From: Acidobacteriota bacterium
Lineage (GTDB): Bacteria; Acidobacteriota; Thermoanaerobaculia; UBA5066; Gp7-AA6
DNA: 49,001 nt
Assembly (NCBI GenBank): GCA_046735265.1
Contig: JBKPSZ010000011.1
Location: 1 to 49,001 of the forward strand
Reading direction: 5' to 3'
The notes below the pieces were generated by a model. The model searched no databases. It worked only from the letters and a program-made list of their open reading frames with translations, and was not told the DNA's origin. This document shows, piece after piece, positions 14,360 through 43,235 of the stretch (its first letter is position 1; the number at the start of each line of letters is the position of its first letter). The position numbers were made by a program, and so were the translations under genes.

Positions 14360-14375
14360 TGGCACCTCGGTTGCA
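14360..14375 (+). promoter_or_regulatory. sigma-54 promoter (hydrolase)
   Basis: TGGCACCTCGGTTGCA, consensus match. Confidence 0.8.
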
Positions 14376-15456: not shown

Positions 15457-15497
15457 CCCCGCGCCGGCCCCGCGTCGGGGGTTATGCTCGACCCGGG

Positions 15498-18945: not shown

Positions 18946-18961
18946 TGCAAGAAGCGTTCCG
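18946..18961 (-). promoter_or_regulatory. sigma-54 promoter
   Basis: CGGAACGCTTCTTGCA. Confidence 0.7.
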
Positions 18962-18977
18962 CGAGGCGAGCGAATGC

Positions 18978-19028
18978 AAAAAAATAGGCCGCGGTGTGCG
19001 GCCGCGGCCCGGGTGAAAGAACTGCCAC
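18978..19028 (-). ncRNA. Candidate sigma-54-dependent sRNA 1
   Basis: Promoter at 19039-19054, then about 18 nt, then GGCCGCGG/CCGCGGCC hairpin and T7. Confidence 0.45.
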
Positions 19029-19038
19029 TCGAAAATCT

Positions 19039-19054
19039 TGCAATCCGTCTGCCA
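19039..19054 (-). promoter_or_regulatory. sigma-54 promoter
   Basis: TGGCAGACGGATTGCA. Confidence 0.7.
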
Positions 19055-21000: not shown

Positions 21001-21016
21001 AGCAAGGCGGGTGCCA
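21001..21016 (-). promoter_or_regulatory. sigma-54 promoter (Omp85)
   Basis: TGGCACCCGCCTTGCT. Confidence 0.8.
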
Positions 21017-21028
21017 CCGCGCCGGGAA

Positions 21029-21044
21029 TGGAACGGAACTTGCT
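21029..21044 (+). promoter_or_regulatory. sigma-54 promoter (iron permease-like)
   Basis: TGGAACGGAACTTGCT. Confidence 0.75.
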
Positions 21045-21065: not shown

Positions 21066-21551
21066 ATGGCGAAGAAAGGCTCGGGCCGCCTTCCGAGGCG
21101 GTCTCCGCTCGAGCGGCTGTCGCTTCGGGCTACCGAATGGGCGGGAAGCTCCCCCGCCTTCGCCGTCGCCTTCGGCGTGATCCTCGTGTGGGCGCTGACC
21201 GGTCCGGTGTTCCACTACTCCGACACCTGGCAGCTCGTGATCAACACGGGCACCACCATCGTGACGTTCCTGATGGTGTTTCTGATCCAGCGCGCGCAGA
21301 ACAAGGAGTCGCGCGCGATTCATCTCAAGTTGAACGAAATCGTCGCCGCCCTCGAGGGAGCGAGCAATCATCTCGTCGGCGCCGAGGACCTGACCGAAGC
21401 CGAGCTCGAGGTTCTCCGGCTCCATTACGCGAAGCTGTCGAAGATGGCCGAGGCCGACGCCACGATCACGCGATCCCACTCGGTGGAGGAAGCGGAGCGC
21501 CGGCACGAGCGCAAGACGGTCAAGGCGGGTGGAAAAGCGCGATCGAGCTGA
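21066..21551 (+). CDS. Low-affinity iron permease family protein
   Basis: GPVFHYSDTWQLVINTGTTIVTFLMVFLIQ..QN...AIHLKLNE. Confidence 0.9.
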   Translation: MAKKGSGRLPRRSPLERLSLRATEWAGSSPAFAVAFGVILVWALTGPVFHYSDTWQLVINTGTTIVTFLMVFLIQRAQNKESRAIHLKLNEIVAALEGASNHLVGAEDLTEAELEVLRLHYAKLSKMAEADATITRSHSVEEAERRHERKTVKAGGKARSS

Positions 21552-21564
21552 GACTTCCGCCGAA

Positions 21565-21580
21565 TGGCACGTCTCATGCT
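21565..21580 (+). promoter_or_regulatory. sigma-54 promoter (BON)
   Basis: TGGCACGTCTCATGCT. Confidence 0.75.
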
Positions 21581-21662: not shown

Positions 21663-21983
21663 ATGACTCGTAACCACTCCAGGCTCCTGGCGGCCGTCGT
21701 GGCCGCAGTGGTCGCCGTCGGCATCGCCTGCACGACCACGCAGACTCCCGGCGAACAGATCGACGACGCCTCGATCCACACCGCCGTGAAGTCCAAGCTG
21801 ACGGCCGACCGTTTCTCGAACATCACGAACGTCGACATCAACGTCACCAACGGCGTCGTGACTCTCGCCGGCGAAGTGCCGAACGCCAAGGTCAAGGCCG
21901 ACGCCGAAGCCGAAGCTCGCAGCGTCAAGGGCGTCAAGAGAGTCATCAACAACCTTCAGGTGAGCAATCCACCGAAATCGTGA
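21663..21983 (+). CDS. BON-domain lipoprotein (OsmY-like)
   Basis: Lipobox GIAC; DDASIHTAVKSKL, NGVVTLAGEV, VKGVKRVINNL. Confidence 0.9.
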   Translation: MTRNHSRLLAAVVAAVVAVGIACTTTQTPGEQIDDASIHTAVKSKLTADRFSNITNVDINVTNGVVTLAGEVPNAKVKADAEAEARSVKGVKRVINNLQVSNPPKS

Positions 21984-22800: not shown

Positions 22801-22816
22801 AGGCATGTTCCTTGCT
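22801..22816 (+). promoter_or_regulatory. sigma-54 promoter
   Basis: AGGCATGTTCCTTGCT. Confidence 0.72.
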
Positions 22817-22872
22817 CAGGCTTCCTCGTTCGGGACCGCATGGAGCGGTCGCCGAAGCGAAAGGAGCATTTG

Positions 22873-23184
22873 ATGAGGAACAGACTCGTGGCCGCGATGT
22901 CGGCGCTGGCGTTCGTCTGCCTGGCGACTCTTGCCGTGGCGGCGCCCGATCCGAGCCAGAGCGATACGAAGTCCGTCAGTGGCGTGATTTCCCGCGTGGA
23001 TATGAACGCCAAGTCGATGGTCGTCAAGGACGCGTCTGGCAACGAGGTCACCGTTTACTGGAACGAGGCGACCCGGGTCAGCGGCGATCTGCGGGAGGGG
23101 TCTACGGTGAAGATCGACACCCGCGAGCAGGACGGCAAGACCTGGGCGACGTCGATCGACGTTCAGGCCAAGAAGCCTTACTGA
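22873..23184 (+). CDS. Small secreted beta-rich protein (OB-fold/DUF5666-like)
   Basis: Signal peptide; SGVISRVD...DLREGSTVKI; AAGGAG RBS. Confidence 0.75.
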   Translation: MRNRLVAAMSALAFVCLATLAVAAPDPSQSDTKSVSGVISRVDMNAKSMVVKDASGNEVTVYWNEATRVSGDLREGSTVKIDTREQDGKTWATSIDVQAKKPY

Positions 23185-23205: not shown

Positions 23206-25050
23206 TCATGCTTGCGGAGGGGGTCCCGAGTGGACCCCCCCACTCTTTCCATCCAGGGCTCGGCTGATGTTGACGGCCGCCGAAATCAGAGCGAGATGCG
23301 TGAAGGCCTGGGGAAAGTTCCCGAGGGCCTCGCCGGTCAGTCCAATCTCCTCGGCGTACAGGCCGAGATGGTTGGCATAGCCGAGCATCTTCTCGAAGGT
23401 CAATCTCGCCTCTTCGAGCCTTCCGGCGCGAGCCAGCGCCTCCGCCAGCCAGAATGTGCACATCGAGAAAGTCCCCTCCTCGCCTCCGATTCCGTCGGGG
23501 GCAATGCGATGGTCGTATCGGTAGACGAGGTGGTCGCTTACGAGGTTGTTCTGCATCGCGTCGAGCGTGCGCCGCATGCGCGGATCGGTCGGTGAAACGA
23601 ACTTGACCATCGGCGCGAGGAGCATGGCGGCGTCGAGATCCTCTCCGCCGATCGTCTGGACGAAGGAGTTGCGGTGCGGCGAGAAGCCCTGCGCCATGAT
23701 CATGTCGTAGATCGCGTCCCGGTTGGCGATCCACTTCGGCAAGTCCGCCGGCAGGCTGCGCTTGTCCGCCAGCCGCTGCGCCCGGTCGAGCGCGACCCAG
23801 CACATCAGCTTGGAAAAGGTGAACTGGTGACGTCCTCCGCGGACCTCCCAGATGCCCTCGTCCGGCTTGCGCCAGTGATCGCACACCCAATCGGCGAGCG
23901 CCCGCACGCCGACCCAGAGCCCGTGCGAAATCGGCTCGCCGTACTTGTTGTAGAGATAGACCGCGTCCATGACTTCGCCCGAGATGTCGAGTTGGAACTG
24001 ACGACTCGCGTCGTTTCCGACCCGCACCGGCCGGGAGCCGCGATAGCCGTCGAGGTGGTCGAGTGTCGACTCCGGCACGTCGGTCCTTCCGTCGATCCCG
24101 TAGAGCACCTGGAGGCCTCGCTCGGGATCGATCTCGCGGCACCGCGCCTCGAGGAAGTGCATGAAGCTCTCGGCTTCCTCCGTCAGCCCGACCCGGAGGA
24201 AGGCGTAGAGCGTGAAGGCCGCATCGCGCATCCAGGTGTAGCGATAGTCCCAGTTGCGGTTCCCGCCGACTCGCTCCGGAAGGCTCGACGTCGCGGCGGC
24301 GACGATCGCCCCGGTCCGGACGTACGTGAGGAGCTTCAGGGCGAGGCACGACCGCTTCACCATTTCGCGCCACCGCCCCTCGTACTGGCTGCGCGAGATC
24401 CACGATTGCCAGAAACGGAGCGTCGCGCGGAACTCCTCGTGGCATCGCTTCTGGAGGCCCTCGAGAGGAGGCGGAGGCTGGGAATCCGCCTGCGAAAGGA
24501 CGACCGGGATCTCGTCCCCCTCCTTCAAGAGGAAGGAGCCGACGACACCGCCGTCCCGCGGCTCGCAGGGCAGCGGCGTGACGAGATCGACCGCTCGCTT
24601 TCCGCCCGAGAAGCGAATGCCCGACGCCGTTCGCTCGCAGCGGGGGCCGGTGAGCGCGTAGTCGAACGCCGGCGTGCAGGAGAGCTCGAAGGGAAGGGAC
24701 CCGCGCACTCCGCGCACGATCCGGACGACCTGATGATCCTCGGGCTTCTTTCCTCCCCCGCTCACGTGAATCGGCATGAAGTCGACGACTTCTCCGACGC
24801 CGTCGGGGGTCAGGAAGCGCGTCAGGAGGACGTTCGAATCGGGAAGGTACATCTGACGCCGGCGCGCCTCCTCCGAGGTCGCCGCGATGCGAAAGAAGCC
24901 TCCCTTCTCGTCGTCGAGGATCGATGCGAAGAGCGAGGGAGAGTCGAAGTGCGGCAGGCAGAGCCAGTCAATCGAGCCGTCGATGCCGACGAGGGCCGCG
25001 GTGTGCAGGTCGCCGATGACCCCGTGATGTTCGATCGGCAGATAGCTCAT
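23206..25050 (-). CDS. Glycoside hydrolase family 15 (trehalase-like)
   Basis: IGDLHTAALV, TSSLPE..GG.RNWDYRYTWMRD, GNFPQAFTH. Confidence 0.93.
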   Translation of the reverse strand: MSYLPIEHHGVIGDLHTAALVGIDGSIDWLCLPHFDSPSLFASILDDEKGGFFRIAATSEEARRRQMYLPDSNVLLTRFLTPDGVGEVVDFMPIHVSGGGKKPEDHQVVRIVRGVRGSLPFELSCTPAFDYALTGPRCERTASGIRFSGGKRAVDLVTPLPCEPRDGGVVGSFLLKEGDEIPVVLSQADSQPPPPLEGLQKRCHEEFRATLRFWQSWISRSQYEGRWREMVKRSCLALKLLTYVRTGAIVAAATSSLPERVGGNRNWDYRYTWMRDAAFTLYAFLRVGLTEEAESFMHFLEARCREIDPERGLQVLYGIDGRTDVPESTLDHLDGYRGSRPVRVGNDASRQFQLDISGEVMDAVYLYNKYGEPISHGLWVGVRALADWVCDHWRKPDEGIWEVRGGRHQFTFSKLMCWVALDRAQRLADKRSLPADLPKWIANRDAIYDMIMAQGFSPHRNSFVQTIGGEDLDAAMLLAPMVKFVSPTDPRMRRTLDAMQNNLVSDHLVYRYDHRIAPDGIGGEEGTFSMCTFWLAEALARAGRLEEARLTFEKMLGYANHLGLYAEEIGLTGEALGNFPQAFTHLALISAAVNISRALDGKSGGVHSGPPPQA

Positions 25051-26513
25051 GAAGCGAGCGCCGCCGGCAGATAGTCCTCCGCGCGCGGGAATTCCGACAG
25101 ATCCCGCGAGATCGCCGCGCGGAGGTACGCGTCGAGCCAGTGGTAGATGTCGCGTTCGCGGACGATGCGCCGAAGGCGGCGCATCCGCTCCTTCTTTTCC
25201 GAGTCGGGCATCGTGAGAGCCCGCCGGAGAGTCTCCGCGACCCCTTCGACGTCGTACGGGTTGACGAGGAGGGCGCCGGTCTGTAGCTCCGCCGCCGCCC
25301 CGGCGAACTCCGACAGGACCAGGACGCCGTCATCGGCGAGCCGTGTGGCGCAATACTCCTTGGCGACGAGGTTCATGCCGTCCTTGAGCGGCGTGACGAG
25401 GGCGACGTCGGCCGCCAGATAGTACGCGGGCAGGCGCGGGCCCTCGAGGCTGCGATGGATGTAGTGGATCGGGACCCAGCCCGACCGCGTGAACTGGCCG
25501 TTGATTTCGCCGACGAGACCTTCGATCGCCGCTCGGTGCTCGCGGTACCCGGGGATGTCCTCGCGGCTGGGGACGGCCACCTGCACGAGCGTCACCTTTC
25601 CTCGCTGCTCCGGGTCCTTCTGAAGCATCCAGCGAAAGGCCTCGAGCTTCTGCGGAATTCCCTTCGTGTAATCGAGGCGGTCGATCCCGAGCACGATCTG
25701 CCTCGCGCCCTCGTCCTGCTTCAAGCTCTCCGTCTTCTCGATCACGTCGGCTCGCCGGGCGAGGCGCGAGAACGAGCGCGCGTCGATCGAGATCGGAAAG
25801 GTGCCGACGCGCACCTCGCGCCCTTCCCAGCGCACGCGCACCACCGCCCCTTTTCCGGTGATCGACGCTTCCGGCAGGAGCAACCGGGCGCACTGGAGAA
25901 AATTCCGCCGGTCGCGGATCGTCTGGAACCCGACCAGGTCGAACTCGAGGAGCGATCGCAGGATCGGAAAGCGCCAGGGCAGCTTCAGGAAGATGTCGAG
26001 CGGCGGAAAAGGGATGTGAAGGAAGAACGCGATTCGAGAGGAGACGCCCAGGCGGCGAAGCTCGCCCGCCATCCCCATCAAGTGGTAATCGTGCACCCAG
26101 ATGAAGTCTTCGGGCTGCGCGCCCGCGGCCGTCTCCTTTGCGAACTTCCGGTTGACCGCCTCGTAGGCTTGCCAATAGGAGGGATGGAAGCGACACATCG
26201 AGAGGAGGTCGTGGAAGAGAGGCCAGATCACCTCGTTCGAGAAGCCGTGGTAGAAGCCGTCGCGCTCCGCGGCCGTCAGCGACACGGGCACGAGCTCGTA
26301 GCCGAACCGCTCCGCCGACCGGGCGAGCACCGCTCGCGGATCCGCCAGCTCCTCTTCGACGACGCCGCTCCACCCGATCCAGCGGCCCCCGCGATTCTGC
26401 AGCACGGGCCGCAGCGCCGTCACGAGGCCGCCGCTGCCCGGCTCGATCCGCCAGTCCGCCCCTTCGCGGGCGAGGGTGAAGGGGAGACGGTTGGAGACGA
26501 CGACGAGTCTCAT
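25047..26513 (-). CDS. otsA: Trehalose-6-phosphate synthase
   Basis: [47 protein letters not shown]. Confidence 0.95.
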
Positions 26514-27394
26514 GCCGCTCCCCCGTTCGCGCCGGCGGGGAGTCGCGCCTCGGCCCGAGCGGCGCGCTCCCATCGCGTGAGGAAGCCGATCAAGTCCTCC
26601 GGAGGCCGCAGCCACAGGTCCGCCTCCGTCGGCCGCCGCCGGTCGCGAACGAGAACGCGCAACCCGTGGCCGCGCAGCGCGAGGAAGGCGTCTTCGTCCG
26701 TTCGGTCGTCGCCGAGATAAGCGACGGAGGCGCCGGGCGGAAGCTCGGCGAGCACCGATTCGACGACCCGCCCCTTGCTCGACCCTGCGGGACGGAACTC
26801 GAGCCCGCCGTCGAAGGGGAGCGCCACGAGTCCCCGTCGGTCGAGCGAGGACCGCCACCACTCGACGAGTGCCGTGCGCGCCTCGGGAAATCGCTCCGGA
26901 TCGGCGCGCTCGTGGAGGGCGAAACCGAACGGCTTTCTCTCGAAGAGATCCAGCCACCCTCGCTCCTCGATCCACTGGCCGATTCGATCGAGAAGGTCCG
27001 TGAGCGGCAGCGGAATCGGAGGGGCTGAGAGCGAACCGTCCGCCGCTCGGCGCTCGAGGCCGTGGGACCCCCACAGATCCGCCCTCGGAACGATCCAGTC
27101 GGTGCGGGCCTCGAGGTCGGCGAGCGCCCGCCCGCTTGCGACGACGAGCCGCGTGCCGCCGGCTTCGAGAATGCGCTGGATCGCCTCGGGAACCCCCGGG
27201 TGCGGGAGCGCGAGCTCGCGCCCTCCGCGGAAAGGCGCGAGCGTGCCGTCGTAGTCGACCATCAGGACGCGCGCCGGCGCTTCGCGGAGCGCCGCGAAGA
27301 AGACGTCGAGGAGGGCGCGCGTGGAACTGCGTCGCTCGCGGGGCCGCCGCGCGGACGTGGAACGAGATTCTCCTGAAGAGGAGCGAATCGCCAT
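26510..27394 (-). CDS. otsB: Trehalose-6-phosphate phosphatase (HAD)
   Basis: DYDGTLAP, SGR, GSHGLE, KG, GDDRTDEDAF. Confidence 0.92.
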   Translation of the reverse strand: MAIRSSSGESRSTSARRPRERRSSTRALLDVFFAALREAPARVLMVDYDGTLAPFRGGRELALPHPGVPEAIQRILEAGGTRLVVASGRALADLEARTDWIVPRADLWGSHGLERRAADGSLSAPPIPLPLTDLLDRIGQWIEERGWLDLFERKPFGFALHERADPERFPEARTALVEWWRSSLDRRGLVALPFDGGLEFRPAGSSKGRVVESVLAELPPGASVAYLGDDRTDEDAFLALRGHGLRVLVRDRRRPTEADLWLRPPEDLIGFLTRWERAARAEARLPAGANGGAA

Positions 27395-27409: not shown

Positions 27410-27425
27410 TGCGAAAACCGTGCCG
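27410..27425 (-). promoter_or_regulatory. sigma-54 promoter (otsBA-GH15)
   Basis: CGGCACGGTTTTCGCA. Confidence 0.7.
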
Positions 27426-27446
27426 GATTTCGCGAGGTCGGAGCGG

Positions 27447-27462
27447 TGGCAGGCGAATTGCT
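27447..27462 (+). promoter_or_regulatory. sigma-54 promoter (metallothionein-PRC)
   Basis: TGGCAGGCGAATTGCT. Confidence 0.75.
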
Positions 27463-27487: not shown

Positions 27488-27640
27488 ATGACGTGCCAAC
27501 ACCGCGGATGTGGTTGTCAGGAAACCACCGTCGAACTCGAAGGAAGGAAGTTCTGCAGCGAGGCATGCGCCGACATGGAGACGACGGGACGCCACGGCGC
27601 GCACTGTCCGTGCGGACACGCCGACTGCGCCGCCGTCTGA
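27488..27640 (+). CDS. SmtA-like bacterial metallothionein
   Basis: CQHRGCGC...FCSEAC...CPCGHADC in 50 aa; GGAGGAG RBS. Confidence 0.82.
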   Translation: MTCQHRGCGCQETTVELEGRKFCSEACADMETTGRHGAHCPCGHADCAAV

Positions 27641-27718
27641 TCCTTCGAGTTTCGAGGCAAGCGATTTCGCGACGGACGGAGGGTCCGCCCGTCGAAATAC
27701 CAACCAAGGAGGAAAGGA

Positions 27719-28084
27719 ATGGCCAAGGTTCTGGATCAGCCGAGAGTGCTCTCCGCGTCGACGTTGAAGGGAGACCCGGTCCGCAATGCCGCCGGGGAGG
27801 ATCTCGGAAATATCGAAGAGTTCATGATCGACCTCGAGACGGGGAGGGTCGCGTACGCCGTCCTCTCGTTCGGCGGATTCCTCGGCATGGGCAACAAGCT
27901 GTTCGCCCTGCCCTGGGAGGCGCTCCGGCTCGACACCGACAGGCACGAGTTCGTCTTGAATGTCGACAAGGAAGTCTTGAAGAAGGCTCCCGGCTTCGAC
28001 AAGGACAACTGGCCGGATTTCGCCGACCGGTCCTGGGGAGCCGGCATCTACCGCTACTACGGCCACCGGCCGTACTGGGAGTAG
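27719..28084 (+). CDS. PRC-barrel domain protein
   Basis: GEDLGNIEEFMID..GRVAYAVLSFGGFLGMG.KLFALPW. Confidence 0.92.
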   Translation: MAKVLDQPRVLSASTLKGDPVRNAAGEDLGNIEEFMIDLETGRVAYAVLSFGGFLGMGNKLFALPWEALRLDTDRHEFVLNVDKEVLKKAPGFDKDNWPDFADRSWGAGIYRYYGHRPYWE

Positions 28085-28094
28085 ATCCTCGCCC

Positions 28095-28162
28095 CGCCTC
28101 TCCGGCGGAACCTCGCCGGGCTCCGTTCGCTCGGCGCGTCTCCGCCGGAGAGGCGCCCTTTT
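28095..28162 (+). terminator. Long hairpin, probable terminator
   Basis: 15-bp arms CGCCTCTCCGGCGGA/TCCGCCGGAGAGGCG, inner stem, then CCCTTTT. Confidence 0.55.
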
Positions 28163-28183
28163 CGTCCGGATCGGAGGCGACTC

Positions 28184-29038
28184 ATGGCTCGTGGTTCTTC
28201 GGCGAGGCCGCTGTGGAGTGGCCAGATCTCGTTCGGCCTGGTCTCGATTCCCGTCGGGCTCTACAGCGCGGTCGAATCTTCGGAGCGGATTTCCTTCCAC
28301 TTTCTGCACCGCAAAGACATGGCGCCGATCCGCTACAAGAAATTCTGCAGCCGCGAGGACGTCGAAGTCTCCAACGACGAAATCGTGAAGGGACGAAAGA
28401 CCGGCAACCGCTGGACGGTCGTCGAAAAGAAGGAGCTCGAGAAGGCGGCCGCGGAGGCCACGCCCGGAGAGGAGCGCGACGCGATCGAGGTCCTCCAGTT
28501 CGTTCCGCCCGAGTCGATCGATCCCCTCTCGATCGACCAGCCCTACTACGTCGCGCCCCGCAAAGGGGGCGAAAAGGCGTATGCGGTTCTCCGCGAGGCG
28601 CTGGCCGATCGCAAGCGCGCCGGTATCGTGCGGCTGGCGCTGCGCGAGCGGCCGCATCTGGGAGCGCTCTTGCCTTCCGCCCGGGCCCTCACGCTCGTGA
28701 CGCTTCGTCCCTTCGAGGAGATGCGCAATCCGGGTCGGTTGCCGCTGCCCTCCGACGGCAAGCGGCCCGCGGAGGTCAAGCTCGCCGAAATGCTGGTGGA
28801 CCGGCTCTCCGAAGACGGGTGGGATCCCGCGGCGCACCCCGACCGGTACCGCAAGGCCCTCGAAAAACTTCTCGCGTCGAAGAAGCCCAAGGCGGCGGCC
28901 GCCGGAGGCACCGCGGCGCCCGAACAAGAAGGCGGCGAAGTCGTGGACCTCATGGAGGCGCTTCGACGGAGTGTCGGGCGGGGCGCCCGCCGCGAACCGG
29001 TGCGGCGCTCGAAAGCCCGGCGGGCCGGCGCGGCGTAA
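28184..29038 (+). CDS. ku: NHEJ Ku protein
   Basis: WSGQISFGLVSIPV, PIRY, IVKG, YYVAP, VVDLMEALRRS, basic tail. Confidence 0.93.
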   Translation: MARGSSARPLWSGQISFGLVSIPVGLYSAVESSERISFHFLHRKDMAPIRYKKFCSREDVEVSNDEIVKGRKTGNRWTVVEKKELEKAAAEATPGEERDAIEVLQFVPPESIDPLSIDQPYYVAPRKGGEKAYAVLREALADRKRAGIVRLALRERPHLGALLPSARALTLVTLRPFEEMRNPGRLPLPSDGKRPAEVKLAEMLVDRLSEDGWDPAAHPDRYRKALEKLLASKKPKAAAAGGTAAPEQEGGEVVDLMEALRRSVGRGARREPVRRSKARRAGAA

Positions 29039-29131
29039 GCGGCGCGCGTTCCCATTCGCTCCGAAAAAGAATCGGCCAGGCCCTGGAGACCTGGCCGATC
29101 CTCCGACGCGAACTTTGGATCGCGGTGATTT

Positions 29132-29281
29132 CTACGTGACCGAGCGCCCCTGGATCAACCGGATCAGCAGGATCACGACCGCGGCGACGAGCAGGATGTG
29201 GATGAAGCCCGAGATCGTGTATCCCGACACGACGCCGAGGAGCCACAGTACGAGCAGGATCACGAATATGGTCCAGAGCAT
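29132..29281 (-). CDS. lmo0937/DUF5670-family small membrane protein
   Basis: MLWTIFVILLVLWLLGVVSGYTISGFIHILLV (manual translation, 49 aa); AAGGAG RBS. Confidence 0.88.
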   Translation of the reverse strand: MLWTIFVILLVLWLLGVVSGYTISGFIHILLVAAVVILLIRLIQGRSVT

Positions 29282-29344
29282 TTTTCGTCACTCCTTCCTA
29301 GTTCCAGGCGGCCGTCGAGGGCCCCTCCTGTGCGGATGGTAAGG

Positions 29345-29360
29345 AGCGAAAAGCGTGCCA
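29345..29360 (-). promoter_or_regulatory. sigma-54 promoter
   Basis: TGGCACGCTTTTCGCT. Confidence 0.75.
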
Positions 29361-29382
29361 GCCGGGGACCCGAAGCGAAGGA

Positions 29383-30687
29383 TCAGCGGCGGAGACGCGC
29401 CCTCTCGCCCGAGGCGCGCGACGTCTTGCGCGGCGGGGAGGCCTTCGCGCGCGCGGGTTTCTTGACGTCACCGGAAGAGGCTCGCTTCGTCGGCTCGCAC
29501 TCCTCGCCGAGTTTTTCGGGCAGCAGCGTCCGGACCGTGGCCGCCGGAATCGTGCCTTTCTCCGTGAGGATGTACGAGCGGTGCACCATGTTCCGGAGCT
29601 CCCTCACGTTGCCGGGCCAGGTGTGCTTCTGAAGAAGGTCGAGCGCCGTGGGCTCGAAGGATTCGACCCCGGCCTTCTCCTGGGCTTCGATCTCACGCCG
29701 GAAATGCTCGGCCAAGACCGGGATGTCTTCCTTGCGGTCCTTGAGCGAAGGGAGGCAGAGCGGGAAGACGTTCAGCCGGTAATAGAGGTCCTCGCGGATC
29801 TTCCCCTTCTCGAGCGCGTCCTTCGGGTCCCGGTTGGTGGCCGAGAGCAGACGCACGTCCACCTTCAGCTCTTGAGTCCCGCCGACGCGTCGGATCGTGC
29901 GCTCCTCCAGCACGCGAAGGAGCCGCACCTGCAGCTCGGCGCTCATCTCCGTGATCTCGTCCAAAAAGAGCGTCCCGCCGTTGGCCTCTTCGAAGTAGCC
30001 GACGCGCCGGCGGTCCGCGCCCGTGAACGACCCGCGCTCGTGCCCGAAGAGCTCGCTCTCGATCAGAGTCGGGGAAACCGCTCCGCAGTTGAAGGCCACG
30101 AACGGCTTTCCGGCCCGACGCGAGAGGCGGTGGATCGTGCGCGCCGCGACCTCCTTGCCGCTCCCGGACGGCCCCGAGATCAGGACCGGCGCCAGAGTCC
30201 GTGCGACCTTTCGGATCTCCTCGAACACCCGACGGATCGCCTCGGAGCGCCCCACCATCTCCCCGAGACGCCCCGTCTCCTGGAGCTCGGTTCTCAGTGT
30301 GTCGAGCTCGCTTTCGAGCCGACGGCGCTCGGCGACCCTCTGAAAGACCGCCTCGAGCTGAGCGGGCCGGAGCGGTTTCAAGAGGTAGTCCGTTGCGCCG
30401 GCGCGAAGCGCTTCGATGGCGTGGTCGATGGCGCTCGAGCCGGTGATGACGACGGCGTCGAGGTCCGGCTGGGTCTGCTTCGCCTCCCGGAGGATTTCCA
30501 ACCCGTCCCCGTCGGGCAGCGCGATGTCGACCACCAGCAGGTGCGGCTGAAAGTCTCGAACGGCGTCGGAAGCTTGGCGCGCCGTTCCGACCGCGAGCGT
30601 CTCGCCTCCGATGCCGCCGAGCTCGGAGATTGCCTCCTCGAGCCCGCGTCGGGTCGAGACGTCGTCCTCGACGATCAGAGTCTTCAA
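29383..30687 (-). CDS. sigma-54 activator (REC-AAA+), lacking C-terminal HTH
   Basis: REC (VEDD, VDIALPD, KP); GPSGSGKE, ELFGHERGSFTGA, LFLDEI, REDLYYRL, WPGNVREL; basic low-complexity tail. Confidence 0.93.
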   Translation of the reverse strand: MKTLIVEDDVSTRRGLEEAISELGGIGGETLAVGTARQASDAVRDFQPHLLVVDIALPDGDGLEILREAKQTQPDLDAVVITGSSAIDHAIEALRAGATDYLLKPLRPAQLEAVFQRVAERRRLESELDTLRTELQETGRLGEMVGRSEAIRRVFEEIRKVARTLAPVLISGPSGSGKEVAARTIHRLSRRAGKPFVAFNCGAVSPTLIESELFGHERGSFTGADRRRVGYFEEANGGTLFLDEITEMSAELQVRLLRVLEERTIRRVGGTQELKVDVRLLSATNRDPKDALEKGKIREDLYYRLNVFPLCLPSLKDRKEDIPVLAEHFRREIEAQEKAGVESFEPTALDLLQKHTWPGNVRELRNMVHRSYILTEKGTIPAATVRTLLPEKLGEECEPTKRASSGDVKKPARAKASPPRKTSRASGERARLRR

Positions 30688-30938
30688 GCGGTTCGGCCCT
30701 TCTCCGGCGTTTGCATTTCGAGCGCGTCCTGGCGTCCCCTCTCGAACAGCTCGAAAGCCCGCGAGAGCTCGCGGCGGGCCGTCGCGAGCGCGATGGAAGG
30801 ATCGTCTCCCCGCTCCGCCCGGCGGCTGGCCGTTTCCAGATGCAGCGAAACCGCCGAGAGCGGCGTCGATACGTCGTGCAGGAAACGCCGCAACCAGGCG
30901 CGGTCGAGGACGTTCCCGCGATTCGGTTCCGAGCTCAT
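30684..30938 (-). CDS. Stand-alone HisKA/DHp-like protein (putative phosphotransferase)
   Basis: H-box-like FLHDVSTPLSAVSL, 84 aa, no ATPase domain; TTGA overlap with the activator. Confidence 0.7.
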   Translation of the reverse strand: MSSEPNRGNVLDRAWLRRFLHDVSTPLSAVSLHLETASRRAERGDDPSIALATARRELSRAFELFERGRQDALEMQTPEKGRTA

Positions 30939-30984
30939 CTCGATAAATCCTATGTCAGGGGTCTCTGTCTCGGAGAAAGCCGCT

Positions 30985-31018
30985 AAAAACAGGCGCCCCC
31001 GCGCAAACGGGGGCGCCT
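30985..31018 (-). terminator. Intrinsic terminator
   Basis: AGGCGCCCCC/GGGGGCGCCT hairpin plus GTTTTT on minus. Confidence 0.8.
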
Positions 31019-31040
31019 TCGAAGGGGATCGATTCGAGGC

Positions 31041-31738: not shown

Positions 31739-31754
31739 TTCAAGAGTCGTGCCG
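31739..31754 (-). promoter_or_regulatory. sigma-54-like promoter (variant -12)
   Basis: CGGCACGACTCTTGAA. Confidence 0.5.
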
Positions 31755-33920
31755 GAATCGTTCGGCGTCGGTCGAGACGACGACTTCGACTCCTTCGGCC
31801 GGGCGACTCGTCGACACGCCGACTTCCTCTCCGCGCGTTTCCACGTGCACGTCGAGGGTGCCTGTCGCCCCGCGCAGGTTCTGAAGCCGGATGTCGCGGA
31901 GAAACGGAGGCAGCTTCGGGCTCTCGAACCGAAACCGGCGGCCGCCTGCGTCGATCGACAGACCGAGACAGCACTGCAGAAGCAGGAACACGGCGCCCGC
32001 CGACCACGACTGCGGCGCGCAGGCCAGCGGATAGAGCGTCGGAGGCTCGCCTTCGTGCCGCTCGAAGCCGCAGAAGAGCTCCGGCAGTCTGCGCAGCTCC
32101 ATCTGGCGGCTGACGTCGAGCATCGCGACGAGCAGGCGCATGGCGAGGTCCTGCCGCCCGTACGCCGCAAGCCCGGCGGCGGCGAGCGCGTTGTCGTGGG
32201 GCCAGATCGAGCCGTTGTGGTACGACATCGGGTTGAAGCGCGCCTGCCCGCGCGCGATCGTTCGAATTCCCCAGCCCGAGAACCCGTCGTCGGAAAAGAG
32301 GGTGCGAGCGACCGACTCCGCGCGCTCGGGCAGCGCGATGCCGGTCCAGAGCGCGTGCGCGGCGCTCGAGCACGCGACGCGACAGGGACGTTTTTCCCCG
32401 TCGAGCGCCATGGCGTAGCTCGAAAGCTCCTCGCACCAGTAGGCCTCGTCGAAGGCGCGGCGCATCCGATCTCCCGCGCTGCGGAGCGTCTCCGCGCGCC
32501 CGCGATGTCCGAGAGCTTCGGTCAGCCGCGCCGCTCCGAGGCGCGCTGCGTAGACGTAGCCCTGAACTTCGGCGAGCGCGATGGGGCCGTCGGCGAGCCG
32601 GCCGTCGGCGTGGAAGACCGCGTCCTGGGAGTCCCGCCAACCCTGTTGAACGAGACCCCTCGGCGACTGCCGGTGATATTCGACGAATCCGTCACCGTCC
32701 CGGTCGCCCCACGAATCGATCCAGTCGAGCGCCGCCTCGACGTGAGGCCAGAGCGTCTCGAGGAAAGCGTCGTCGCCGGTGCGTTCGTGGTAGGCCGCGG
32801 CGAGCATGACGAAGAGAGGCGTCGCGTCGACGCTGCCGTAGTACCGCCCGAAAGGGACCTCGCCGAGCGCGGCCATTTCCCCCTTGCGCGCCTCGTGGAG
32901 GATCTTCCCGGGCTCGGCGTCGTGCTCGGGGTCGAGCTCGCGCGCCTGCGTCTCGGAGAGGTAGGAGAGCACGCCCTTCGCGAGCGACGGATCGAGCCAG
33001 AGCGTCTCCAGGGCCGTCACGATCCCGTCGCGTCCGAACGGAGTGCAGAACCAGGGCACCCCGGCGAACGGGTAGGGGCCGGACGGAAGGGCCGTCGTCA
33101 TCATCTCCAGGTCCGCCGCCGAGCGCCGCAGCCACGCTCCGAAGGCCTCGTGCGGACAGGCGACCGTGGCCTTCTCGGCGGCGGCCGACTCCGCGCGGGC
33201 CGCCGACGGCAGCCGCGGCGTTGGCCGATCCTCCCCCGAGCTCTGGCAGTAGATCGTCTGGAGAAGCCGTCGCTTTTCTCCGGGCTCCAGGCGCAGCGAG
33301 AAGACGACTCCGCCCGGGCGCACTTCGCCCGGCTGAGGATCGCAGTAGAGGTGCGTCTCGCGGACGACGCCGTCCCGGCCCGCATAGGACATCCGGACGC
33401 CGCGTTCCTCCGGGATGGCCGGAAGGCGGCGCCCCTTCTTTTCGCGAGAGGTTCCGCGCACTTCGAAGACGTCCGCAAAGTCCGCGTCCACCGCGACCGA
33501 CATGCGCACGCTCGTCGGCTCGAGCCCGTAGTTGCGCAACGAGATCGCCTGAGAGAATCCGCCCGGGAACGTCCAGACTTCCCGCACGAGGTGGACGGTC
33601 CCGCGCGGGACCGCCATGTGGCCGTCGCGATAGACGTCGGCGTTCGTCAGGTGCGCGACGAAAGAACCGCTGTCGTCCCGCAGGCCGGAGCTCAAGAGCA
33701 GCGGCCGCTGCCCTTCCAGGGTCAGCGCGAGCCGGGAAAGAAAGCGCGTCCCCTCGTGATAGAGGCCGAGCTCGGGCAGTCCGACGGAAGCGATGTCGCC
33801 CAGCCGGTCGCAGATGGCGAACGTCTCGCCCCGCTTGAGCACCCGGGTTCGGCCATCGAGCCTCGACGAGGTCGCCCGGATGTAGAACTGATTGTCGATT
33901 TCGATGACGTCTTCGTCCAA
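31740..33920 (-). CDS. Amylo-alpha-1,6-glucosidase / glycogen-debranching family
   Basis: AGVPWFCTPFGRD, AEPGKILHE, YYGSVDATPLF, QGWRDS, YHNGSIWPHDN, PELFCG. Confidence 0.92.
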   Translation of the reverse strand: MDEDVIEIDNQFYIRATSSRLDGRTRVLKRGETFAICDRLGDIASVGLPELGLYHEGTRFLSRLALTLEGQRPLLLSSGLRDDSGSFVAHLTNADVYRDGHMAVPRGTVHLVREVWTFPGGFSQAISLRNYGLEPTSVRMSVAVDADFADVFEVRGTSREKKGRRLPAIPEERGVRMSYAGRDGVVRETHLYCDPQPGEVRPGGVVFSLRLEPGEKRRLLQTIYCQSSGEDRPTPRLPSAARAESAAAEKATVACPHEAFGAWLRRSAADLEMMTTALPSGPYPFAGVPWFCTPFGRDGIVTALETLWLDPSLAKGVLSYLSETQARELDPEHDAEPGKILHEARKGEMAALGEVPFGRYYGSVDATPLFVMLAAAYHERTGDDAFLETLWPHVEAALDWIDSWGDRDGDGFVEYHRQSPRGLVQQGWRDSQDAVFHADGRLADGPIALAEVQGYVYAARLGAARLTEALGHRGRAETLRSAGDRMRRAFDEAYWCEELSSYAMALDGEKRPCRVACSSAAHALWTGIALPERAESVARTLFSDDGFSGWGIRTIARGQARFNPMSYHNGSIWPHDNALAAAGLAAYGRQDLAMRLLVAMLDVSRQMELRRLPELFCGFERHEGEPPTLYPLACAPQSWSAGAVFLLLQCCLGLSIDAGGRRFRFESPKLPPFLRDIRLQNLRGATGTLDVHVETRGEEVGVSTSRPAEGVEVVVSTDAERFRHDS

Positions 33921-33945
33921 GACGGCACCTTACGGGCGAAGCCGG

Positions 33946-35043
33946 TCAGACGCTCGCATCCGGCGCCCGAACCTCGGGCGCCGCCCGCAGCGCGGGGCGT
34001 CGCGCGAACGGCACCACCCGGTGAGAGGCGACCTCGCGGTAGATCGCCTCGTAGTCCTCCGCCATCCGCTCCGCGGTGAACCGCCGCTCGAAAGCCTCGC
34101 GGCAGCGGAATCGGTCGATCCGCTCGATGCGGTGAACCGCGTCGACCGCGCCGTCGATGTCCGACACGATGAAACCGGTCTCCCCTGGCTCGACGACCTC
34201 GTCGACGGACCCGCCCGGGAAGGCGATGACCGGCGTTCCGCAGGCGAGCGCCTCGATCATGACGAGGCCGAACGGCTCCGGCCAGTCGATCGGGAAGAGC
34301 AGTGCCGCCGCGTGCCCGAGGAATTCGTTCTTCTCCTCCTCTCCGATCTCGCCGAGAAAGGTCACGTGGGGGTCGGACAGGAGCGGCACGATCTGCCGCT
34401 CGAAATATTCGGTGTCCGCGCGGTCCACCTTCGCCGCGATCCGAAGCCGCCGGCCCGAGCGCCGGGCGATCTCGATCGCGCGGTCGACGCGCTTCTCCGG
34501 GGAAATGCGGCCGAGGAACGCGAGGTAGCCGCCGGCGCCCTTTCGGAACTCGTAGAGGTTCTCCGGCAGCCCGTGGGGGACCGTGGCCCGCCACGATGCG
34601 TTCGGAAGCTGATGGCGCTGCGCCCGGGAGATCGACACGAGCGGCATGTCGGAATACTCCCGATACAGCGGCTCCAGATCCGGCAGGTCCATGCGCCCGT
34701 GGAGCGTCGTCACCTGCGGCACGGCGGTGCGGCGCGAGAACGGAAAGTGCAGATAGTCCACGTGGAAGTGGATCACGTCGAACCGGCGGGCTTCCGCGAA
34801 AACCTGTTCGAGAAGGAGCAGATGCCGCGCGATCGGATCGTGGCACTCCGGGTCGAGACGCAGCGCGCGGCGCGCGGTCGGAACGAGGCGGGCCGACGTG
34901 CGCGAGTCGCCGCTCGCGAAAAGAGTCACGTCGTGCCCGAGGCGCACGAGCTCTTCGGTGAGATAGGAGACCACCCTCTCCGTGCCGCCGTAGCGCGCGG
35001 GAGGGACACTTTCGTAAAGCGGGGCGACCTGTGCAATCTTCAT
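33946..35043 (-). CDS. GT4 glycosyltransferase
   Basis: VPPARYGGTERVV, GRISPEK, WPEPFGLVMIEALACGTPV. Confidence 0.93.
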   Translation of the reverse strand: MKIAQVAPLYESVPPARYGGTERVVSYLTEELVRLGHDVTLFASGDSRTSARLVPTARRALRLDPECHDPIARHLLLLEQVFAEARRFDVIHFHVDYLHFPFSRRTAVPQVTTLHGRMDLPDLEPLYREYSDMPLVSISRAQRHQLPNASWRATVPHGLPENLYEFRKGAGGYLAFLGRISPEKRVDRAIEIARRSGRRLRIAAKVDRADTEYFERQIVPLLSDPHVTFLGEIGEEEKNEFLGHAAALLFPIDWPEPFGLVMIEALACGTPVIAFPGGSVDEVVEPGETGFIVSDIDGAVDAVHRIERIDRFRCREAFERRFTAERMAEDYEAIYREVASHRVVPFARRPALRAAPEVRAPDASV

Positions 35044-35057
35044 CACTTCTCCAGAGA

Positions 35058-35073
35058 AGCAGATTTCGTGCCT
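35058..35073 (-). promoter_or_regulatory. sigma-54 promoter (GT4 operon)
   Basis: AGGCACGAAATCTGCT. Confidence 0.7.
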
Positions 35074-35119
35074 CCTCGCGCAAGGCGTGGAGACTCGGAT
35101 CGAATCGTCGAGAACGTTG

Positions 35120-35389
35120 CTACCGGCCGGCCCGGGCCCGACCGATTCCATAGGTCGGCGCCGGCGGAACCGCTTCCGGCGGGGAGGGGAAACGCTTCAC
35201 CGACGCGACCGATCCGCGCGGGCCCTTCCCTCCGTCGCCTTCTTCCGAGGCGCCGGTCCGGACGAAGAGAACAGAAAGCAGCGCGGCGGAACAGGCGAGG
35301 ACGATGTAAAGCGAACCCGAAATCGCGTAGAACAACGCCACACCGACGATCAGAACGAGCAGTGCGGCGAGGATCAGCTGACGAAACAT
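35120..35389 (-). CDS. Small 2-TM hypothetical protein
   Basis: MFRQLILAALLVLIVGVALFY... Confidence 0.6.
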   Translation of the reverse strand: MFRQLILAALLVLIVGVALFYAISGSLYIVLACSAALLSVLFVRTGASEEGDGGKGPRGSVASVKRFPSPPEAVPPAPTYGIGRARAGR

Positions 35390-35434: not shown

Positions 35435-35450
35435 AGCAATCCGCCTGCCA
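35435..35450 (-). promoter_or_regulatory. sigma-54 promoter
   Basis: TGGCAGGCGGATTGCT. Confidence 0.75.
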
Positions 35451-36406: not shown

Positions 36407-37371
36407 ACGCCGACCCGGTGTCTCCCGTCCGCCGGCCAGAGAAGGGCGAAACGGTCCTGGGTGGCGATGGCGTCTCCTCCCTTTTCGAGGCCGCGGACTT
36501 CGATCGTGAGCGCCTCCTCTTCTAAGGCGCAGTCGAGATAGTGAAAGAAGCGCAACGGCGGGCCGGCGAACGCGTCGTCGGAATGCCGGCGGCGGCGCTC
36601 TTCGGAGAGGCGCACCCGGGCGGCGCCGCCTCCCCCCGCGACCACGAACGTCTTTCCGCCGCGCTCGAAGCGCTCGTAGCTGTGCACGTGGCCCGAGATC
36701 ATCGCGAGGGACTTCCGCGACGCCCGGAAGGGCGGGACGAAGAAGCGCTGGACGTGACGTTCGTCCGAGGTGATCGTGCTGTTCGTGAACGGCGGATGAT
36801 GAAGGAAGACGAGGACGCCGCGCACGTCCGGATCCGAATCCGCGGCTGCCAGGATCGCGTCGAACCAGGCGCGCTGTTCGCGCCACTGTCGGGCCGACAG
36901 GAACCGGACGTTGGAATCGAGGAAGACGAGACCGAGAGGCCCGTAGCGGACGGCGTACCAGTGCCGCGCTTCGACCTCGGGAAAACGCGAGAAGAAGTTC
37001 TGCAGCGCCCGCGGACGCGAGATCCAGTACTCGTGATTCCCGAGAACGGGAAAGAGGCGCAGCCGCGCCGACCGCAGCGGCGAGCAGACGCGGTCGAAGC
37101 GCGACCAGCCGGCCGCCGACGATCCGCAGAACACCATGTCCCCCAGCAGCGCCAGAAAGTCGGGATCCGATCGCACGATTTCGCCGACGAGTCGCTCGCG
37201 CTCGGGGCCGTTCGACTCCCGCCAGAATTCCAGCCGCGAGGTGGGCTGCAGATCACCAACGATCGCGAAGTGCCCGGTCCGAACCGGGACATCCGCGGCC
37301 GCGAAGGGGCCGGAAGTCTCCGGCGAGGGTCGGACCGCCGCCCAGGCGGCCGCGCTCTCAGCCGGGCTCAT
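36403..37371 (-). CDS. Metallophosphoesterase
   Basis: GDLQ, LGDMV, GNHE, HHPP, SGHVHSYER. Confidence 0.9.
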   Translation of the reverse strand: MSPAESAAAWAAVRPSPETSGPFAAADVPVRTGHFAIVGDLQPTSRLEFWRESNGPERERLVGEIVRSDPDFLALLGDMVFCGSSAAGWSRFDRVCSPLRSARLRLFPVLGNHEYWISRPRALQNFFSRFPEVEARHWYAVRYGPLGLVFLDSNVRFLSARQWREQRAWFDAILAAADSDPDVRGVLVFLHHPPFTNSTITSDERHVQRFFVPPFRASRKSLAMISGHVHSYERFERGGKTFVVAGGGGAARVRLSEERRRRHSDDAFAGPPLRFFHYLDCALEEEALTIEVRGLEKGGDAIATQDRFALLWPADGRHRVGV

Positions 37372-37742
37372 TTCGAGACGAGATACTCGCGCTGCCGGAG
37401 GAACCCACGCTGCGATTCCTCCCTCCACGCACGCGGCCACCGCGGGGATCGAACGGCTTTGAGAAGCGCCCGGCAGAGAGCCAGCGACCTCGTCGGCCCC
37501 CGAGCGCTTACGAGCGCCGAGATGCTTCCCCGACCGTGGTGCGGCTCGTACCAGATCGCGGTCCAGCCGCCGCTCTGCTCGACGAGCTGGTACTTCCATC
37601 CCTTGCGGTCCGAAACGAGCTCCGCCAGAGCGAGGGCGGTCCAGTCGCGGGTCGAAAAGGGAGGCACCGAGTCCCCCGCGTGGTCTCCGAAGATCAATGC
37701 GTGCAGTTTTGCGTCGAGCTCCGGCCCTGCCGACACATCCAT
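37368..37742 (-). CDS. Hypothetical protein resembling phage ABA-sandwich/BC1872-like domain
   Basis: AGPELDA...PPFST...LALCRALLKA pattern. Confidence 0.55.
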   Translation of the reverse strand: MDVSAGPELDAKLHALIFGDHAGDSVPPFSTRDWTALALAELVSDRKGWKYQLVEQSGGWTAIWYEPHHGRGSISALVSARGPTRSLALCRALLKAVRSPRWPRAWREESQRGFLRQREYLVSK

Positions 37743-37754
37743 GCCATTTCTTCG

Positions 37755-37770
37755 AGCAAGGTCCGTACCA
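37755..37770 (-). promoter_or_regulatory. sigma-54 promoter
   Basis: TGGTACGGACCTTGCT. Confidence 0.78.
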
Positions 37771-37787
37771 GCGGAAAACCGGCGCCG

Positions 37788-37803
37788 GGGTACGGGACTT
37801 GCT
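37788..37803 (+). promoter_or_regulatory. sigma-54 promoter
   Basis: GGGTACGGGACTTGCT. Confidence 0.7.
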
Positions 37804-40082: not shown

Positions 40083-40098
40083 AGCAAAGGCCGCGCCG
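40083..40098 (-). promoter_or_regulatory. sigma-54 promoter
   Basis: CGGCGCGGCCTTTGCT. Confidence 0.65.
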
Positions 40099-40108
40099 GG
40101 CCGGAGGC

Positions 40109-40124
40109 TGGCACACCCCTTGCG
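40109..40124 (+). promoter_or_regulatory. sigma-54 promoter
   Basis: TGGCACACCCCTTGCG. Confidence 0.78.
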
Positions 40125-42432: not shown

Positions 42433-42448
42433 CGGCACGTCGGTTGCA
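42433..42448 (+). promoter_or_regulatory. sigma-54 promoter
   Basis: CGGCACGTCGGTTGCA. Confidence 0.78.
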
Positions 42449-42493: not shown

Positions 42494-42736
42494 ATGACCG
42501 ACATGCGCTGCGAAGTCTGCGGAAATTCCTATGACAAGGCGTTCGAGCTGCGGGTCGCCGGCGCGGTTCACGTGTTCGATTCGTTCGAGTGCGCGATACA
42601 CGCGCTCGCGCCCACCTGTAAACATTGCGGCTGCCGGATCCTGGGACACGGGATCGAGAGCGCCGGGGTCTTCTTCTGCTGCGCGAGCTGCGCGCGGATG
42701 GACGGGACGCCCGGCGCCCGCGACCGGCTGGCTTGA
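42494..42736 (+). CDS. Cys-rich metal-binding (metallothionein/TRASH-like) protein
   Basis: CEVCGN.YDKAF, FDSFECAIH, CKHCGCRILGHG, FCCASC. Confidence 0.85.
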   Translation: MTDMRCEVCGNSYDKAFELRVAGAVHVFDSFECAIHALAPTCKHCGCRILGHGIESAGVFFCCASCARMDGTPGARDRLA

Positions 42737-43219: not shown

Positions 43220-43235
43220 TGGCACGCATCCTGCT
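43220..43235 (+). promoter_or_regulatory. sigma-54 promoter
   Basis: TGGCACGCATCCTGCT. Confidence 0.78.

Follow-up and report, generated by a model that had tools for sequence, protein, structure and literature searches.

Sigma-54 activators of group 1 among the bacterial enhancer-binding proteins (bEBPs), such as NtrC, NtrC1, AtoC and ZraR, end in an enhancer-binding, Fis-type helix-turn-helix (HTH) domain. Some described activators are built differently. CtcC of Chlamydia (kinase CtcB) comes from a reduced genome in which it is the only sigma-54 activator, and FlgR of Helicobacter pylori and Campylobacter is reportedly enhancer-independent, as the title of a 2004 study by Brahmachary et al. 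has it. Both are listed as activators without a DNA-binding domain in a passage of PMC3162934 and in Table 1 of PMC7175178; the former source, in the part drawn on here, also presents FlgR as the only activator of its genome, while an excerpt of PMC7482065 reports that the receiver of CtcC restrains its ATPase, an ATPase-only construct having used about four times more ATP than the full-length protein. FleT of Rhodobacter sphaeroides is described as devoid of both regulatory and DNA-binding domains (excerpts of PMC3162934 and PMC9542535). Here we describe an HTH-less receiver and AAA+ sigma-54 activator from a member of the Acidobacteriota, encoded at 29383–30687 on the minus strand of contig JBKPSZ010000011.1 (C11 in our numbering). 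The contig was analysed over its whole length of 49,001 bases, hereafter the window, and belongs to a 3.95-Mb metagenome-assembled genome (G000) that is 94% complete.

Like FlgR and CtcC, the 434-residue product of this gene (TTG start, stop codon at 29383–29385) combines a receiver with a sigma-54 AAA+ ATPase and has no C-terminal HTH; by its architecture it is a group 5 bEBP of the FlgR/CtcC type, whereas the group 1 proteins carry the enhancer-binding domain that it lacks. The likeness to CtcC is one of architecture, and the protein is not an orthologue of FlgR, reaching 291.8 bits against a cut-off of 750 with the corresponding NCBIfam profile. The settings differ as well. FlgR serves flagellar genes as a sole activator and was thereby spared the problem of cross-activation, and CtcC controls developmental genes; the activator described here, in contrast, is one of 12 complete activators in its genome, is not spared that problem, and has stress genes as its candidate targets. 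To our knowledge, neither the convergent polycationic tail nor the DHp-only kinase that we describe below has a known counterpart.

Pfam searches placed a receiver (Response_reg, PF00072, 73.5 bits) at residues 4–114 (30346–30678), the sigma-54 interaction AAA+ domain (Sigma54_activat, PF00158, 234 bits) at residues 144–310 (29758–30258) and the AAA+ lid (AAA_lid_14), which contains the WPGNVREL motif, at residues 316–389 (29521–29742), all on the minus strand. An alignment of 22 homologues showed that the residues on which such a protein is judged are invariant: E7/D8, the acceptor D54, T82 and K104 in the receiver, the Walker A motif GPSGSGKE (residues 172–179), D243/E244 of Walker B, the sigma-54 contact loop GSFTGA (residues 219–224; 30016–30033, minus strand) and GNVREL. 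The serine at the second position of the loop, an alanine-to-serine variant of GAFTGA, is also found in LevR, according to an excerpt of PMC3162934. From the intact ATPase and contact loop, the protein is predicted to open sigma-54 closed complexes in an ATP-dependent manner. Its closest solved structure is the receiver and ATPase of Aquifex aeolicus NtrC1 (PDB 1ny5, E = 4.9e-91 over residues 1–380), which follows the same receiver–linker–AAA+ plan and has a long linker helix; in the AlphaFold model of the activator, a single 30-residue helix (residues 108–137) likewise connects the receiver to the ATPase. By analogy, the activator likely shares the negative control of ring assembly that the receiver exerts in NtrC1.

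Past WPGNVREL and the lid helices, the place of the HTH is taken by KLGEECEPTKRASSGDVKKPARAKASPPRKTSRASGERARLRR, a basic, low-complexity tail of 43 residues (residues 392–434; 29386–29514, minus strand) with 14 Lys/Arg against five Asp/Glu. HTH_8 is absent from the protein in the Pfam search even at E ≤ 1. The NCBIfam profiles for NtrC, AtoC, NtrX, ZraR and FlgR align only as far as residue ~380–405 of the activator, and since those for NtrC, AtoC, ZraR and FlgR are matched only to position ~372–394 of 429–469, their HTH part is left unmatched; no equivalog cut-off was reached (NtrC 367 against 558.6 bits, FlgR as above). In the AlphaFold model the tail has a predicted local distance difference test score (pLDDT) of 31–37 and no secondary structure (mean pLDDT of the model is 65, with parts of the AAA+ core below 50, and use of the model was confined to tail and linker helix). 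The original prediction for this gene, made from the DNA alone, had proposed intact receiver and AAA+ domains with a GSFTGA loop, no Fis-type HTH after WPGNVREL and a basic disordered tail, and each of these elements was borne out.

The missing domain might have reflected a frameshift or a local truncation. However, stop-to-stop translations of all frames over 29000–29600 contain no HTH-like stretch, and a tblastn search of 28900–29700 with the last 62 residues of eight HTH-bearing orthologues returned, at best, a match with E = 0.16 (15.8 bits), so that an HTH in a shifted frame, named by the original prediction as the finding that would overturn it, was not encountered. Nor is PF02954 (HTH_8) listed in any of the 120 best database homologues (66–100% identity, 392–441 residues), of which the named ones carry the source labels Thermoanaerobaculia or Acidobacteriota. 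We then searched 31 genomes of the same order by tblastn, and 27 of them, G000 included, gave a match at E ≤ 1e-100; two genomes are flagged as unpublished (G024, one of the 27, and G005, one of the four without a match). Full orthologues were extracted from 25 published genomes, leaving aside G024 and also G008, where the match is partial and interrupted by three in-frame TGA codons. Seventeen of the 25 are HTH-less and end in a basic tail, namely all 15 from family f1 and both from genus g11 of family f3, whereas the Fis-type HTH is kept in the other eight (3/3 from genus g10 of family f3 and 5/5 from family f2); in a Pfam re-check, HTH_8 was found at 31.9–45.6 bits in three HTH-bearing orthologues and was absent in two tailed ones. 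The second finding that could have spoken for a truncation, an HTH in close orthologues, thus has a divided outcome: the close orthologues (66–89% identity) are HTH-less and agree with the original prediction, while the domain is present in the more distant ones (51–60%). The HTH-less architecture itself spans 55–100% identity in the tblastn comparison, across 17 genomes and two lineages.

A maximum-likelihood tree, for which only the receiver, the AAA+ domain and the greater part of the lid were used, united the 25 orthologues in one clade against four paralogues (support 100/100), with f1, f2 and f3 each well supported, and the HTH-less label required two changes in all 200 bootstrap trees. 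In all 17 HTH-less orthologues the tail is 25–43 residues long and has a net charge of +7 to +12, as opposed to 0 to +8 over 68–83 residues for the C-termini of the eight HTH-bearing orthologues; composition and charge are common to the tails, while their sequence is not conserved. Orthologues with and without the HTH occupy the same gene neighbourhood. On the sequences compared, the missing HTH is not a local truncation, and its loss appears as two independent events. Because both left a polycationic, disordered tail, this pattern argues for a selected state, and the common outcome lends indirect support to the idea that the Lys/Arg tail matters functionally.

The activator gene is preceded by an 84-codon gene (30684–30938, minus strand) whose stop overlaps the activator start and whose product is a DHp-only remnant of the cognate histidine kinase, with the H-box FLHDVSTPL kept and the ATP-binding domain absent. 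This operon is set apart from its upstream neighbour by a strong intrinsic terminator with a 12-pair stem and a T-run (30991–31018, minus strand). A sensor-less DHp and HATPase_c kinase is encoded directly before the activator in families f2 and f3, as well as in part of f1; these full kinases extend 195–211 residues past the phospho-accepting His, and their stop again overlaps the activator start. In genera g1 and g2, at nine loci (the window, L004–L006, L009 and L013–L016), the kinase ends 62–67 residues past that His and retains both the H-box and the overlap with the activator start (translational coupling). A search of the rest of the 94%-complete genome for the orthologous CA domain turned up no close copy. 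The 84-residue protein could serve as a phosphatase or as a phosphotransfer step, and the phosphate for D54 could come from acetyl phosphate or from an orphan kinase.

The genome carries a single rpoN gene (contig C164) and, besides the 12 complete sigma-54 activator genes, two that are cut by contig ends. HTH_8 lies in the same open frame in 11 of the 12, the window gene being the sole exception, and the 49-kb contig holds no second activator gene. With a strict pattern (TGGCAC-N5-TTGC, at most one mismatch), the window contains 13 sites against 1.04 expected from shuffles. Genome-wide the same pattern finds 120 sites, so that 11% of them fall on 1.2% of the bases, and the density is about nine times higher in the window (0.265 per kb) than in the genome (0.03 per kb). 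A position weight matrix (PWM) scan of the window found 18 sites against 5.7 in mononucleotide shuffles; the genome-wide PWM scan is circular for the window, its matrix having been trained on window sites, and the enrichment rests on the generic consensus. A looser pattern gave 36 sites against 23.7 expected and is dominated by noise; together with the PWM scan of the window it contributed some further plausible sites. Altogether we count about 14 strong and three weaker sigma-54 promoters in the window, with 11 or more sites located 13–80 nucleotides upstream of the starts of open reading frames (ORFs). The original prediction had spoken of more than 20 promoters, a number that these counts do not reach. 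It had also found no -24/-12 site upstream of the activator's own operon, and here strict pattern, PWM scan and loose pattern agree in finding none in 30939–31040. Its interpretation, an enhancer-independent master regulator, is thus upheld in part: a conserved HTH-less activator of the FlgR/CtcC type is indeed the only activator gene on a contig dense in sigma-54 sites, while the promoter count has to be lowered and enhancer-free activation of those promoters is a proposal.

Across the order, no gene is linked to the activator, and to a GG-N10-GC promoter, as constantly as that of a 49-residue DUF5670 membrane protein (29132–29281, minus strand). In the window this promoter is TGGCACGCTTTTCGC (29346–29360, minus strand), 22 nucleotides past the activator stop. 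All four relatives from the genus share the arrangement of DHp gene, activator, promoter and DUF5670, with the promoter 15–28 nucleotides past the stop, and a GG-N10-GC site precedes DUF5670 in seven of seven loci inspected, whether or not the adjacent orthologue has an HTH. Genome G027 (98% complete; family f2, genus g9) has neither an activator orthologue, its best match being at paralogue level (44% identity), nor any DUF5670; two congeners carry both genes. A tRNA-Thr gene is separated from the -24 element of DUF5670 by 17 nucleotides in the HTH-less genus g11 and by 118 nucleotides, containing several palindromes, in the HTH-bearing G022; this shorter spacing is suggestive, as a single comparison. 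Sigma-54-like sites precede PRC-barrel and BON genes both in G022 and in HTH-less relatives. A search of five relatives with the DUF892-like protein of the window gave no match.

We also looked for shared sequences upstream of the promoters. Within 215 nucleotides upstream of 14 promoters, k-mers of 8, 10 and 12 nucleotides (at most one mismatch) showed no excess over random windows, and exact dyads (half-sites of 4–6 nucleotides, spacers of 0–14) showed none over controls for 17 promoters. The same searches in HTH-bearing relatives found nothing for 21 promoters of family f2 or three promoters of G022, and inspection of palindromes upstream of the promoters in HTH-bearing loci revealed nothing recurrent. 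As these searches are equally negative where an HTH is present and so have no positive control, they are uninformative about enhancers.

The closest paralogue of the activator is a 411-residue pseudo-activator on contig C199 of the same genome (L045:3430–4662, plus strand), composed of a pseudo-receiver, a degenerate AAA+ domain and HTH_8. The HTH segments of the HTH-bearing orthologues match C199:4495–4695 at 48–57% identity (E 1e-13 to 1e-16), as against only ~1e-6 to 8e-4 for the other activators of the genome. The receiver-like domain has no acceptor Asp, Walker A reads GESGTEKE, and both GAFTGA and the DE of Walker B are missing; Pfam recognizes only positions 3–59 of Sigma54_activat, together with AAA_lid_14 and HTH_8. 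The gene is full length in 16 of 18 f1 genomes and shorter and receiver-less in all six f3 genomes (G024 being among the f3 matches), while in f2 no separate pseudo-activator gene was found, the only matches being the C-terminus of the orthologue itself. Across 11 aligned sequences, neither the HTH nor the unusual Walker A motif of the pseudo-activator varies. A 39-row tree joins activator orthologues and pseudo-activators in a single clade that excludes the genome's 11 other activators (100/100); within it, the pseudo-activators are a monophyletic group (100/99) whose branching place is not settled by this tree. By these comparisons the two proteins are each other's closest paralogues and have undergone complementary losses. 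A complex prediction for activator residues 1–390 with pseudo-activator residues 1–345 scored 0.01 and was run without controls; it counts neither way.

Taken as sequence evidence, these data make an enhancer-independent master regulator plausible, and we give about even chances to the joint proposition that the protein needs no specific enhancer and acts as the island's chief activator. In the mechanism that we propose, phosphorylation of D54 would release the hold of the receiver on the AAA+ domain, through negative control of the NtrC1 kind; the ring would then form and remodel closed complexes of the sigma-54 holoenzyme without a specific upstream site, and its six tails, each of charge +9, would raise the concentration of rings on DNA non-specifically. 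The activator would be the main switch of a dispersed sigma-54 stress or dormancy regulon comprising DUF5670, the Cys-rich/PRC-barrel/Ku operon, OtsBA, BON, DUF892-like, iron-permease-like and envelope proteins, a large part of which would be gathered around the activator gene in this genus; the activator's own operon would be independent of sigma-54.

Several observations weigh against this proposal. The 11 HTH-bearing activators of the genome could serve the island promoters, and the paralogue, with its nearly invariant HTH, could provide enhancer dependence in trans. Action from solution beside 11 specific activators raises a problem of cross-activation, and the cognate kinase of this genus has no ATP-binding domain, which bears on the phosphorylation of D54. 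The lack of a shared upstream k-mer or dyad is of no help, as HTH-bearing relatives gave the same null result. Since the PRC-barrel and BON sites are also present in the HTH-bearing G022, the sigma-54 stress regulon is, on this comparison, older than the loss of the HTH and does not require an HTH-less activator. Finally, no strict-PWM site occurs within 20 kb of the gene in other f1 genera (L017, L018), so the dense island is specific to this genus.

A different arrangement, which we regard as fairly unlikely, would be a division of labour in trans: the HTH-less activator would contribute the ATPase and the GAFTGA-type loop, the C199 pseudo-activator would contribute DNA binding, and mixed assemblies would act at enhancers. 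The model for it is provided by FleQ/FleT and by HrpR/HrpS of Pseudomonas syringae, paralogous activators that work only together. Both partners of those pairs keep their ATPase motifs, whereas in the present case GAFTGA and Walker B are gone from the HTH-bearing paralogue and the two genes are unlinked. In favour of such a partnership speak the far stronger HTH match to C199 than to the other activators, the reduction of that protein to a Sigma54_activat fragment with lid and HTH_8, the joint clade, the invariance of its HTH and Walker A, and its distribution, with a separate gene in f1 (16/18) and f3 (6/6) and none in f2, where the orthologue itself keeps the HTH (5/5); hetero-oligomeric activators are documented, according to an excerpt of PMC9542535. 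Yet genus g10 has the pseudo-activator together with an HTH-bearing orthologue, so the two states are not strictly complementary, and the pseudo-activator gene, which adjoins a UbiD-like gene, is far away from both activator and island. No common dyad or k-mer was found upstream of 17 island promoters (a search of low power), and a tether supplied by a partner would make the convergent polycationic tail superfluous. In addition, activator-like proteins without GAFTGA (VpsR, TyrR and Rhodobacter NtrC) work alone at sigma-70 promoters.

It also seems unlikely that the protein is a narrow, local regulator that activates only the adjacent DUF5670 and perhaps a few neighbours, the remaining promoters being fired by other, HTH-bearing activators and their clustering reflecting a stress island. 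DUF5670 is the only gene linked to the activator across the order, the joint absence in G027 concerns DUF5670 only, other genera have no strict sites within 20 kb, and the 11 further activators could provide the rest; but it is hard to see how a protein without a specific DNA-binding domain would single out one promoter among many, and an activator domain freed of its DNA-binding part has reportedly been used as a promiscuous activator to define the RpoN regulon of Salmonella, if the title of that work is a guide. The contig bears no other activator gene, and at least nine further contigs without an activator gene bear sigma-54-like sites before stress-type or secreted-protein genes. That the basic tail replaces the HTH as a sequence-specific DNA-binding or protein-docking element, with enhancer dependence kept, is improbable: a basic segment is indeed kept in all 17 HTH-less orthologues and arose twice, but only its composition and charge are conserved, its length varies from 25 to 43 residues, it is predicted to be disordered, and no AT-hook core of the RGRP type is visible in the tails. 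As for a decaying gene, recently truncated and without function, nothing beyond the missing domain speaks for it, and we give it next to no credence, as the catalytic and receiver residues are all invariant, the architecture is kept over 55–100% identity in 17 genomes and two lineages, and the same set of domains is listed for the 120 homologues.

The promoters assigned to the island lie on both sides of the activator gene. An operon encoding a Cys-rich peptide, a PRC-barrel protein and Ku (27488–29038) has its sigma-54 promoter at 27447–27461 (plus strand), invariant in five genomes of the genus; back to back with it, CGGCACGGTTTTCGC (27411–27425, minus strand) faces OtsB/OtsA-like genes (25047–27300, minus strand), and in a five-genome alignment the conservation upstream of the PRC operon is limited to these two promoters. 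Farther to the left, a promoter at 21002–21016 (minus strand) precedes a POTRA/Omp85-like gene (19261–20979, minus strand) and is half of a back-to-back pair with that of an Iron_permease (PF04120) gene (promoter 21029–21043, plus strand; gene 21066–21551); a BON-domain gene ending at 21983 has its promoter at 21565–21579 (plus strand), and the PWM scan placed a weaker site at 22801–22815 (plus strand) before a DUF5666 gene (22840–23184). A consensus site at 14360–14374 (plus strand) has an alpha/beta hydrolase gene (14554–15457) as the next ORF on its strand. On the other side of the activator, promoters precede a small membrane ORF with a GT4 glycosyltransferase gene (35436–35450, minus strand; glycosyltransferase 33946–35151), a 124-residue ORF (37756–37770, minus strand; ORF 37368–37742; back to back with a weaker site at 37788–37802, plus strand), a DUF748/AsmA-like gene (40109–40123, plus strand; gene 40138–41850; back to back with a weaker site at 40084–40098, minus strand), an 80-residue Cys-containing ORF (42433–42447, plus strand; ORF 42494–42736) and a DUF892/rubrerythrin-like gene (43220–43234, plus strand; gene 43264–43887). 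There are in all four divergent back-to-back pairs (21002–21043, 27411–27461, 37756–37802 and 40084–40123), with -24 elements ~10–25 nucleotides apart, a compact layout that speaks for the main proposal.

On the minus strand at 18975–19054, a near-consensus site (19040–19054) is followed after ~30 nucleotides by a 9-bp GC hairpin and a T-run, and then by a second, weaker site (18947–18961) before an ORF that starts at 18892. The hairpin makes this a candidate small RNA: it may belong to a short sigma-54-dependent transcript or serve as a shared terminator; its fold z-score is only -1.75, and Rfam reported no family at gathering score over the whole window.

Beyond the window, for 44 of the 107 remaining consensus sites, a ribosome-binding site and an ORF lie no more than 200 nucleotides away. 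Ten site genes chosen for Pfam searches include Pyrid_ox_like, two glyoxalases, a second DUF892-like protein, HrcA, DUF6496, DUF11 and DUF6600, and none of the ten sites shares a contig with an activator gene. The site of the hrcA-type heat-shock repressor gene (contig C273, 3955, plus strand) is an exact consensus 27 nucleotides upstream of the gene. A sigma-54-like site, GGCACGCCGCTTGC, also lies 79 nucleotides upstream of the rpoN start (contig C164, ~18070, plus strand), which makes autoregulation of rpoN possible.

Trehalose and glycogen genes flank the activator on both sides (23206–27300 and 31740–35151, both minus strand); they encode GH15 trehalase/glucoamylase-like, OtsA-like, OtsB-like, amylo-alpha-1,6-glucosidase-like and GT4 proteins, the OtsA/OtsB and debranching-enzyme names being a reading of the translations and not the result of a family search. 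Their presence fits a desiccation or dormancy theme. At the right-hand edge, a large CheB-CheR-PAS fusion protein (45816–49001, plus strand) is cut by the contig end and probably represents the N-terminal portion of a hybrid sensor kinase. Contigs from two small soil metatranscriptome runs of one study are 99% identical to the Cys-rich and PRC-barrel genes (27525–28040); they carry no start, strand or level information, and the lack of cover over the activator means nothing.

Known sigma-54 activators without a DNA-binding domain come from two reduced genomes, in which a single activator serves a single programme. What is new here is the coexistence, in a free-living soil bacterium, of such a protein with 11 enhancer-bound activators, its tie to stress and dormancy genes in place of flagella or development, and a clade that displays the transition to HTH loss, twice and with the same polycationic outcome; as compared with FlgR and CtcC, the partners, kinase and HTH paralogue, have been dismantled as well. 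The locus also makes three questions testable: how an activator acting from solution achieves specificity among many sigma-54 promoters, whether a disordered basic tail can substitute for an enhancer-binding domain, and whether loss of the HTH frees a regulon to grow without evolving upstream sites. Among the papers listed in literature searches on Acidobacteria with sigma-54 and stress, and on Thermoanaerobaculia with sigma-54, we found no study of an acidobacterial sigma-54 regulon. A broader and decidedly tentative reading is that the general stress or dormancy response of this family runs on sigma-54 and not on a stress sigma factor of the sigma-70 family, through one enhancer-independent activator with a twice-evolved tail, and that an ancestral regulator has been split in three pieces, a DNA-binding-less ATPase, an ATPase-less HTH paralogue and, in this genus, a DHp-only kinase. 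On that reading, the tail would offer a general means for one sigma-54 activator to serve numerous scattered promoters without upstream sites, beside 11 conventional activators. The finding also points to a stress role of sigma-54 in a soil lineage that is abundant and mostly uncultured.

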